Shown in pieces: positions 6,599 through 6,842 of a stretch of DNA of 7,753 bases (position 1 is the first letter of the stretch; the number at the start of each line of letters is the position of its first letter). A program made the position numbers and the translations under genes. Origin of the DNA: a virus (lineage: Duplodnaviria; Heunggongvirae; Uroviricota; Caudoviricetes); the IMG/VR virus record IMGVR_UViG_648276647_000005, positions 1 through 7,753 of that record; one strand, written 5' to 3'. The notes beneath the pieces are model-generated. The model saw only the letters and a program-made list of their open reading frames with translations, did not search any database and was not told where the DNA came from.

Positions 6599-6688
6599 TC
6601 AATCAGAAAGGTGATCCATAAGAACAATAACAAGACAATAAATTGCCATTATAGCCGCAATAGCCAGCGCACATTTCAGAACCAGCAC
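6599..6688 (-). CDS. candidate small hydrophobic peptide, 29 aa (MLVLKCALAIAAIMAIYCLVIVLMDHLSD), GTG start
   Basis: GTG at 6688..6686 preceded by GGGAGGT with a 4-nt spacer; an in-frame ATG at 6703..6701 would give 34 aa. Single predicted TM helix. Lies immediately upstream of the hok promoter. Below the track's length cut-off; sequence-only prediction. Confidence 0.3.
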   Translation of the reverse strand: MLVLKCALAIAAIMAIYCLVIVLMDHLSD

Positions 6689-6794
6689 GATGACCTCCCA
6701 CATTTGACGTACACGCGCACGATTCAATATGTGGCAACCTCTTCCTTGCTTCAATACAAAATCAGGTATTGTTGTATAACTATTTAACTAACTC

Positions 6795-6842
6795 ACGCCC
6801 CCACATCTCAGGCGCTCAACTTATGTGTGCGGGGCGTTTTTT
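6795..6842 (+). terminator. plus-strand intrinsic terminator-like hairpin with T6 tract (orphan)
   Basis: ACGCCCC (6795..6801) pairs with GGGGCGT (6831..6837) at the stem base around an imperfect upper stem/loop, followed by a T6 tract (6837..6842). The minus-strand version has an A-run upstream and a poor U-tract, so it is mainly plus-directed. No annotated plus-strand gene ends here. Confidence 0.45.

Follow-up and report, generated by a model that had tools for sequence, protein, structure and literature searches.

The stretch of DNA considered here (the window: 7,753 nucleotides (nt), positions 1 to 7,753 of the IMG/VR virus record IMGVR_UViG_648276647_000005) belongs to a lambdoid prophage, of which it covers the nin-to-late region, and every gene in it lies on the minus strand. 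In the order of transcription, a DUF551 gene, a 131-amino-acid (aa) gene and a 27-aa open reading frame (ORF) are followed by the region under study, 6599..6842, then by the hok/mok/sok locus and the hok terminator; beyond this terminator lie rem-like, DUF1367, DUF1364 and Q-like genes, with the genes for lysis and for the small terminase subunit after them (Table 1). The hok/sok pair is a textbook toxin–antitoxin system, and prophage copies of it are found in most Escherichia coli genomes. An initial annotation of the region had described a small hydrophobic ORF with a promoter on the minus strand, together with a promoter-like TTGACG and a hairpin followed by T6 on the plus strand, and all of these features are present in the sequence where it had placed them. 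The analysis presented here suggests that 6599..6754 of the minus strand is probably a real protein-coding gene, which encodes a 29-residue, single-helix membrane peptide and, in a moron-like arrangement, would be transcribed from its own promoter and on into hok, and that the hairpin is a separate element.

Table 1. Coordinates of the features of the studied region and of its neighbours in the window.
Feature	Position	Strand	Basis or remark
DUF551 gene	7689..7324	minus	
131-aa gene	7324..6929	minus	
27-aa ORF, MTWPEAFTTVGIAMAVALVVYSICRWG	6932..6849	minus	comparative conservation
GC-rich hairpin and T6	6795..6837 and 6837..6842	plus	terminator form; the minus strand reads A6 and a hairpin without U-tract
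Candidate peptide promoter, TTGAAG and CATATT	-35 6754..6749, 17-nt spacer, -10 6731..6726	minus	sigma-70-type
TTGACG, proposed small-RNA -35	6704..6709	plus	within the 5' untranslated region of the peptide mRNA
ATG of the 34-aa reading	6703..6701	minus	not a conserved start
Shine-Dalgarno sequence GGGAGG	6699..6694	minus	5 nt upstream of GTG
Peptide ORF, 29 codons and stop, GTG start, (f)MLVLKCALAIAAIMAIYCLVIVLMDHLSD	6688..6599	minus	comparative conservation
hok promoter, TTGGCG-17-TAGAAT	-35 6591..6586, -10 6568..6563	minus	promoter scan
hok/mok/sok leader	6556..6382	minus	Rfam RF01794, 114.7 bits; model starts at 6556
mok-hok reading frame	6444..6232	minus	Pfam HOK_GEF, E = 3e-23
Intrinsic terminator after hok	6164..6145	minus	terminator scan

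The minus-strand frame is open from 6754 to 6599 and offers two starts, an ATG that gives a product of 34 aa and a GTG (6688..6686) that gives one of 29 aa; the stop codon, TGA at 6601..6599, lies 8 nt before the -35 of the hok promoter. The 29-aa product consists of a single hydrophobic segment capable of spanning a membrane and a short acidic C-terminal tail, and its best 19-residue Kyte-Doolittle window, 2.86, is strongly hydrophobic. Related loci were gathered by scans of viral contigs, anchored on the peptide ORF or on the end of the 27-aa ORF, and by a scan of one genome per species, which gave a collection of 134 loci with the peptide ORF, 131 of them full-length. The GTG start is kept and the frame is free of internal stops in all 131 full-length copies, and the length of the peptide is unchanged in 130, one copy having lost its stop codon. 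These copies comprise 30 distinct nucleotide versions that encode 19 proteins, and their variable sites are distributed over the first, second and third codon positions as 7, 6 and 16, with a ratio of nonsynonymous to synonymous substitution rates (dN/dS, NG86) of 0.34. The amino-acid replacements are all conservative (V/A/I, A/T, D/E/N, H/R and S/T), and among the related loci the other five frames over the ORF contain stops. Nucleotide diversity (pi) is 0.064 in the ORF, compared with 0.25 in the 5' untranslated region (UTR), 0.32 in the promoter spacer, 0.39 farther upstream and 0.17 in the hok leader, that is, the ORF is 4–6 times more conserved than its flanks (0.25–0.39); in the commonest lineage no other 90-nt stretch of the module is as conserved.

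The 34-aa reading, which the initial annotation had kept as an alternative, was rejected, given that its ATG is not conserved among lineages: the codon at this position is ATG, ATA, CAG or ATA-like, and ATG is missing from most of them. The start is judged not to be conserved because the conceptual translation upstream of the GTG differs completely between lineages (MWEV, IWEV, MREV, EQEIY, IQEVV). A 64-aa ORF of the plus strand (6593..6787), antisense to the peptide and annotated as a hypothetical protein in phage HannyBb (L003, 1694..1879), was also discarded, as it has stops and variable starts elsewhere and does not fit the codon-position pattern; it seems to be a spurious ORF, called on the strand opposite the true gene.

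The signals for translation and transcription are retained along with the frame. A GGAGG, GGAGA or GGGGG sequence stands 5–6 nt before the GTG in 132 of the 134 loci, though the bases around it vary by lineage, and the GAG within it is kept in all cases. Farther upstream, the -10 hexamer CATATT is present in 132 loci and a TTG-type -35 (TTGAAG, TTGAAT or TTGCTG) in 120, always with a spacing of 17 nt, and the pi of the -10 is 0.089 as against 0.32 for the drifting spacer. This candidate promoter has 8 of 12 consensus matches and falls below the threshold of the promoter scan (9 of 12), which reported the hok promoter as the sole promoter-like site of the minus strand in this part of the window; its hexamers are nevertheless kept across at least five unrelated upstream contexts, and it is probably an active promoter of the sigma-70 type. 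Transcription would start near 6719, which corresponds to a 5' UTR of roughly 31 nt. No motif resembling a LexA box was seen by eye near this promoter. Thus, the hydrophobic 29-aa ORF with a GTG start and a strong Shine-Dalgarno sequence, as initially annotated, is borne out by its coding signature and by the conservation of its start, ribosome-binding site and promoter, and the open frame across related prophages, which had been named as a check on it, is found in every full-length copy; the proposed minus-strand promoter TTGAAG-17-CATATT gains likewise from hexamers that persist while the spacer drifts.

At least six upstream architectures occur among the 134 loci. The window type, with the 27-aa ORF and the hairpin, accounts for 13 loci, the HannyBb/mEp460 type for 16 and the S88 type for 97; two rarer types, which have the 27-aa ORF and different hairpins, are represented by 2 loci each, and in the BL21 type a DUF977 gene takes the place of the promoter. 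Between the window and loci of the HannyBb/mEp460 type, homology stops at 6757, just 3 nt upstream of the -35 of the peptide promoter. Conversely, the hok loci of phages 933W and vB_EcoM-606R7 lack the counterpart of about 6577..6848 of the window, and in the alignment their 27-aa ORF almost abuts the hok promoter. The studied region is therefore a cassette, either present or absent. In the commonest architecture, a divergent promoter-like sequence of the plus strand, TTGATT-16-TATAGT, abuts the peptide -35 (S88, L251, 2651..2678), and the approximately 130 nt downstream of it are 90–96% conserved within the lineage, with no terminator or ORF recognised in them. In strain C43(DE3) (L250, NZ_CP011938.1, 2505..2914), the annotated DUF977 gene enters the peptide ORF for about 40 nt in another frame; in this BL21 lineage the recombination joint lies inside the 5' UTR of the peptide gene, which has lost its own promoter and kept the Shine-Dalgarno sequence and the GTG. 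C43(DE3) carries an intact copy of the peptide directly upstream of hokD.

The peptide gene is closely associated with hok, which directly follows it in 98 of the 111 loci that extend far enough downstream. The 43 nt from the peptide stop to the start of the hok mRNA contain no predicted terminator, and the first one that the minus strand offers beyond the peptide gene is that of hok; therefore, transcripts of the peptide gene are expected to read into hok and to end at 6164..6145, and co-transcription of the two is most likely. This arrangement also lends itself to a different interpretation, according to which the ORF is untranslated, its hydrophobic frame is incidental and the conserved 90 nt are a cis-regulatory DNA or RNA element of hok/sok, for example an upstream promoter element, a transcript that modulates the folding of the hok mRNA or a promoter-occlusion unit. 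The distance of only 8 nt to the hok -35, the frequency with which hok comes next and a peptide promoter that would drive RNA polymerase through the hok promoter all agree with it, as do the lack of a RefSeq call for the peptide gene and the fact that literature searches found no proteomic or ribosome-profiling (Ribo-seq) support for the product. A regulatory element does not, however, account for the excess of third-position changes, a dN/dS of 0.34 and exclusively conservative replacements, nor for an invariant GTG at a fixed distance from a Shine-Dalgarno sequence whose flanks differ, in a frame that is intact in every locus and is the only one without stops. Moreover, in 12 loci of one lineage (Shigella flexneri CP182557, L033, and 11 viral contigs) the peptide gene and its promoter are intact and hok is absent, unrelated DNA beginning about 10 nt after the peptide stop, and short hok loci of the 933W type do work without the block: hokW-sokW has been shown to be a working toxin–antitoxin pair (PMC8621323), and 933W lacks it. 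A purely cis-acting role for the 90 nt is hence regarded as quite unlikely, and the reading as a translated gene is retained.

This gene is conserved, widespread and almost never annotated. The ORF and its promoter are present in 1928 of 5426 complete E. coli genomes (about a third), in most cases 8 nt before a hok -35, and among 40 matches sampled across the ranking no annotated gene coincided with the peptide, save the DUF977 fusion in C43(DE3). Where gene callers do call it, they choose inconsistent starts, with products of 29 to 151 aa, and public collections hold few close relatives; the 29-aa form appears in GenBank as a 'membrane protein' (APK03751.1). The peptide has no significant match in Pfam, NCBIfam, PHROGs or PADLOC, and BLASTP does not align it with the Hok of the window itself. 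A query extended to 51 aa from a TTG matched only 7 Escherichia clusters of the protein database, and an HMMER search against 1.84 billion representatives returned 9 close relatives and none that were distant. A first search pattern gave no match among species-representative contigs; in the species-representative scan, the match within Escherichia/Shigella was S. flexneri, and outside this group only three contigs of metagenome-assembled genomes were found, which resemble the same phage DNA. The literature searched with the peptide sequence and for hokD and small proteins, as well as the hokW-sokW paper, makes no mention of the peptide.

On the plus strand, the initial annotation had proposed a small RNA of about 100 nt, transcribed from TTGACG with a weak -10 and ending at the hairpin, and hence a second small-peptide/small-RNA module. 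The TTGACG is indeed there, as the reverse complement of CGTCAA in the 5' UTR of the peptide mRNA, and other lineages have TTAGCG, CAGACG or TGGACG in its place; none of the hexamers spaced 16–18 nt from it has both key -10 bases, A2 and T6, and the promoter scan reported no plus-strand promoter at this place. An RNA initiated from TTGACG would begin at about 6738, wholly upstream of the predicted start of the peptide mRNA (about 6719), and therefore it could not act as an antisense RNA in cis. Rfam gives no match within 6599..6842, even at E <= 1; its only matches are the hok/sok leader and, below threshold, an isrK-like one at the hok 3' end. Pairing in trans was considered as well, either by Sok as a shared antitoxin or by the putative small RNA with the peptide or hok mRNA, and was dismissed, the complementarity being in neither case better than that of shuffled sequence; the Pas prophage small RNAs were set aside too, as they have been described beside holin and lysozyme genes and not at this locus. 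With a -35 that is not conserved, no usable -10 and a hairpin present in 25 of the 5426 genomes, the RNA of about 100 nt is not supported, and neither is a type I-like module built on it: what stands of the proposed module is the peptide gene, and its small-RNA partner falls away.

It could still be argued that the peptide is a membrane toxin of a second type I system, repressed by a plus-strand RNA that ends at 6795..6842 and starts either at TTGACG (about 100 nt) or at a promoter back-to-back with that of hok (about 245 nt). Such a system would be in keeping with a 29-aa product with one hydrophobic helix and a hydropathy like that of TisB, ZorO and Ibs, with the strong Shine-Dalgarno sequence, with the prophage site beside another type I toxin and with the stable U6 terminator that the plus strand carries upstream of the peptide in the window. 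In a predicted consensus fold, moreover, the Shine-Dalgarno sequence may pair with a CCUUUC near the 3' end of the ORF. In addition, many loci have a plus-strand TTAACT-18-TAAAAT at the 3' end of the peptide ORF, back-to-back with the hok promoter, from which an antisense RNA spanning the whole ORF could start. In the window, however, this -10 reads TGAAAT, with G in place of the key A, a nucleotide that varies among loci. The terminator is missing from 120 of the 134 peptide loci, and of the 1928 genomes only 25 have it; for the commonest lineage, the prediction places none on the plus strand upstream of the ORF. Together with the shortcomings of TTGACG and the want of complementarity in trans described above, the 5' UTR of about 31 nt differs from the long structured leaders of most type I mRNAs, and the peptide has no homology to Hok or to any other toxin family. 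No complementary RNA with its own promoter and terminator that is conserved with the toxin gene, as expected of a type I RNA antitoxin, was found among the loci, and a second type I module is thus considered unlikely.

The hairpin itself is a well-defined structure. Its minimum free energy (MFE) is -21 kcal/mol, as against -11.0 +/- 2.4 kcal/mol for dinucleotide shuffles (z = -4.1), and 1 of 200 shuffles folds as well; the terminator scan missed it because its loop exceeds the 8-nt limit of the scan. On the plus strand, the stable GC-rich stem-loop is followed directly by U6, as in an intrinsic terminator. On the sense (minus) strand, A6 stands before the hairpin and only UGAGUUAGUU after it; taken as a minus-strand terminator, the hairpin continues into UGAGUUAGUUAAAUAG, with no U-tract. 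It had been described as belonging to no annotated gene, which holds only in part, since its start lies 12 nt beyond the stop codon (6851..6849) of the 27-aa ORF. Conservation across related prophages, which had been suggested as a check on the hairpin, is limited: the segment accompanies the peptide ORF in 14 of the 134 loci, the stems of window-type relatives are weaker (-11 to -14 kcal/mol for folds of the plus-strand segment), and an alignment of seven hairpin sequences has a consensus energy of -9.5 kcal/mol and shows no compensatory pair or covariation. Five of the six window-type variants retain the U-tract of the plus strand, and because of this a true plus-strand 3' end at the hairpin is plausible. 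Two rarer lineages (3 and 4) have hairpins of their own at this site, unrelated to that of the window and with a U-tract on neither strand.

The position of the hairpin becomes clearer when loci are anchored on the end of the 27-aa ORF, a comparison that covered 130 loci in 24 junction classes. This ORF is hydrophobic, starts with an ATG that shares bases with the stop codon of the 131-aa gene before it (ATGA), and is conserved in 129 loci with a dN/dS of 0.20 and variable sites distributed as 13/12/20; its own GGAGG lies inside several different upstream genes, and neither RefSeq nor the 933W record annotates it. The conserved early block ends with this ORF, and a highly variable cargo junction follows. 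In most junction classes, except the short hok class, a GC-rich hairpin starts 7–34 nt after the ORF, often with a run of A before it and a run of T after it, as in a bidirectional terminator. The hairpin of the window is therefore most likely, judging by its form and place, the junction terminator of this slot, working mainly against plus-strand (antisense) transcription. Alternatively, it could be the 3' end of a true regulatory small RNA that has nothing to do with the peptide and is restricted to this rare lineage, like the Hfq-binding prophage RNAs of pathogenic E. coli. The segment 6738..6846 does fold as a 5' stem-loop, an AU-rich linker and a U6 terminator (MFE -28.9 kcal/mol, z = -4.2), the persistence of the U-tract is in line with such an end, and lambdoid prophages are known to encode small RNAs of the Hfq-binding type (bioRxiv 10.64898/2026.05.13.724894). 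The scan found no credible promoter for it, however, and Rfam no family even at the permissive cut-off mentioned above; the stem is much weaker in relatives, with no compensatory change, the hairpins of lineages 3 and 4 at this place are different ones and have no U-tract, and the Pas RNAs belong to another locus. A promoter, conservation as a unit and a family match, by which an Hfq-type small-RNA gene would be recognised, were not found for this segment, and the small-RNA reading of the hairpin is accordingly given a low probability; the junction terminator remains the preferred reading.

The model that emerges is as follows. The peptide gene would be transcribed from its own sigma-70-type promoter, TTGAAG-17-CATATT, and translated from the GTG at 6688 behind the strong Shine-Dalgarno sequence; the transcript would read through the hok promoter and end at the hok terminator, yielding a peptide-mok/hok co-transcript beside the normal hok mRNA. 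In that sense, the gene would behave as a moron-like, promoter-bearing cargo gene, placed between the 27-aa ORF and the nin genes and expressible from the prophage. The hairpin with T6 would lie outside the peptide unit and fill the terminator slot that follows the 27-aa ORF; having retained only the plus-strand U-tract in this lineage, it may halt antisense transcription short of the early operon, for instance RNA polymerase that reads through from Sok or from the cargo side. The product is most likely a membrane peptide that is expressed in the lysogen and travels with hok, presumably inserted in the membrane through its single helix, and, as a best guess, it may serve the hok cargo as a membrane-active accessory with a toxin-like or exclusion-like role, and not as a classical toxin under antisense control. 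It has also been considered, as a rather doubtful option, that the peptide acts as a so far unrecognised toxin of the membrane, or as a functional partner to Hok, and that it shares a transcript with mok/hok, perhaps under the control of an as yet unseen antisense RNA; a candidate for the latter could start at the TTAACT-18-TAAAAT site and, in this lineage, end at the terminator in 6795..6842.

Several known systems can be compared with this model. Type I toxins (Hok/Gef, TisB, Ibs, Ldr, ShoB, ZorO and DinQ) have fewer than 60 aa, one hydrophobic helix and a strong Shine-Dalgarno sequence and are often carried by mobile DNA, all of which applies to the peptide, whose gene directly adjoins a hok/sok locus. 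Unlike them, the peptide resembles neither Hok nor any Pfam, NCBIfam, PHROG or PADLOC model, has no conserved antisense or divergent RNA gene and only a short 5' UTR (about 31 nt), and ends in an acidic or neutral tail (DHLSD or DRLSD) rather than a basic one. Phage morons share with it a sigma-70-type promoter of their own and a location at a variable junction between conserved blocks, here bounded by the hairpin or terminator slot upstream and by the hok terminator downstream, and its presence or absence as a cassette (933W-type loci lack 6577..6848) is also moron-like. In contrast to morons, the peptide gene has no terminator of its own and shares its unit with hok, and at 29 aa the product is smaller than the characterised exclusion proteins, which are small membrane morons. 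The unannotated small membrane proteins of E. coli, which have come to light in comparative work and by ribosome profiling, are likewise very short, hydrophobic, missed by annotation pipelines and recognisable by a conserved Shine-Dalgarno sequence and frame, whereas the peptide is prophage-borne, is absent from K-12 and, in the collections searched, is confined to Escherichia/Shigella phages. As for the hairpin, bidirectional terminators at phage junctions, such as that at the lambda nin-region position, also consist of a GC-rich hairpin after the last gene of the early block, and many sister prophages have clear terminators of the form A-run, hairpin, T-run in the 27-aa-ORF slot; that of the window differs in having a U-tract on the plus strand only, which is not canonical for the sense (minus-strand) operon.

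Some considerations weigh against this model. The codon-position bias of 7/6/16 corresponds, by our own arithmetic, to a chi-square of about 6.3 and a p of about 0.04, and both this bias and the dN/dS of 0.34 are clear yet not overwhelming for a gene of 87 nt; besides, the loci sampled are related mobile DNA and hence not independent. The ORF abuts the hok promoter, and part of the conservation of its DNA could reflect the regulation of hok, while the argument for co-transcription comes down to the absence of a predicted terminator. No record of expression, translation or phenotype of the peptide was found in the searchable literature. With regard to the hairpin, its orientation suits a putative plus-strand transcript, and the slot argument leaves unexplained why five of the six type-1 (window-type) variants have a U-tract on the plus strand only.

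The implications concern mainly the way in which hok loci are understood, as many loci that have been treated as single-toxin units may carry a second membrane-active product. Were the peptide a toxin or a partner of Hok, about one third of E. coli genomes would have a two-peptide module as their prophage hok locus. Transcription from the upstream peptide promoter could also affect the folding and expression of the hok mRNA. The gene is missed by standard annotation, BL21-lineage laboratory strains included, so that a deletion or clone of a 'hokD' region may cover or interrupt it without the experimenter's knowledge. The present case shows, too, that comparative data alone can suffice to recognise small ORFs at the cargo junctions of phages.

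Two minor observations were made downstream of the mok-hok frame. The AT-rich gap beyond the hok terminator contains two promoter-like sites of the plus strand (6016..6098), one of them a 10/12 match (ATGACT-18-TATAAT); both would face antisense into hok, and on the plus strand the hok terminator lacks a U-tract. In Rfam, the segment 6142..6223 (minus strand), with the hok 3' UTR and terminator, matches isrK below threshold (30.6 bits, gathering score 50, E = 0.0012); isrK is the RNA of Salmonella Gifsy-1 that binds Hfq, and this weak match recurs at three related loci.

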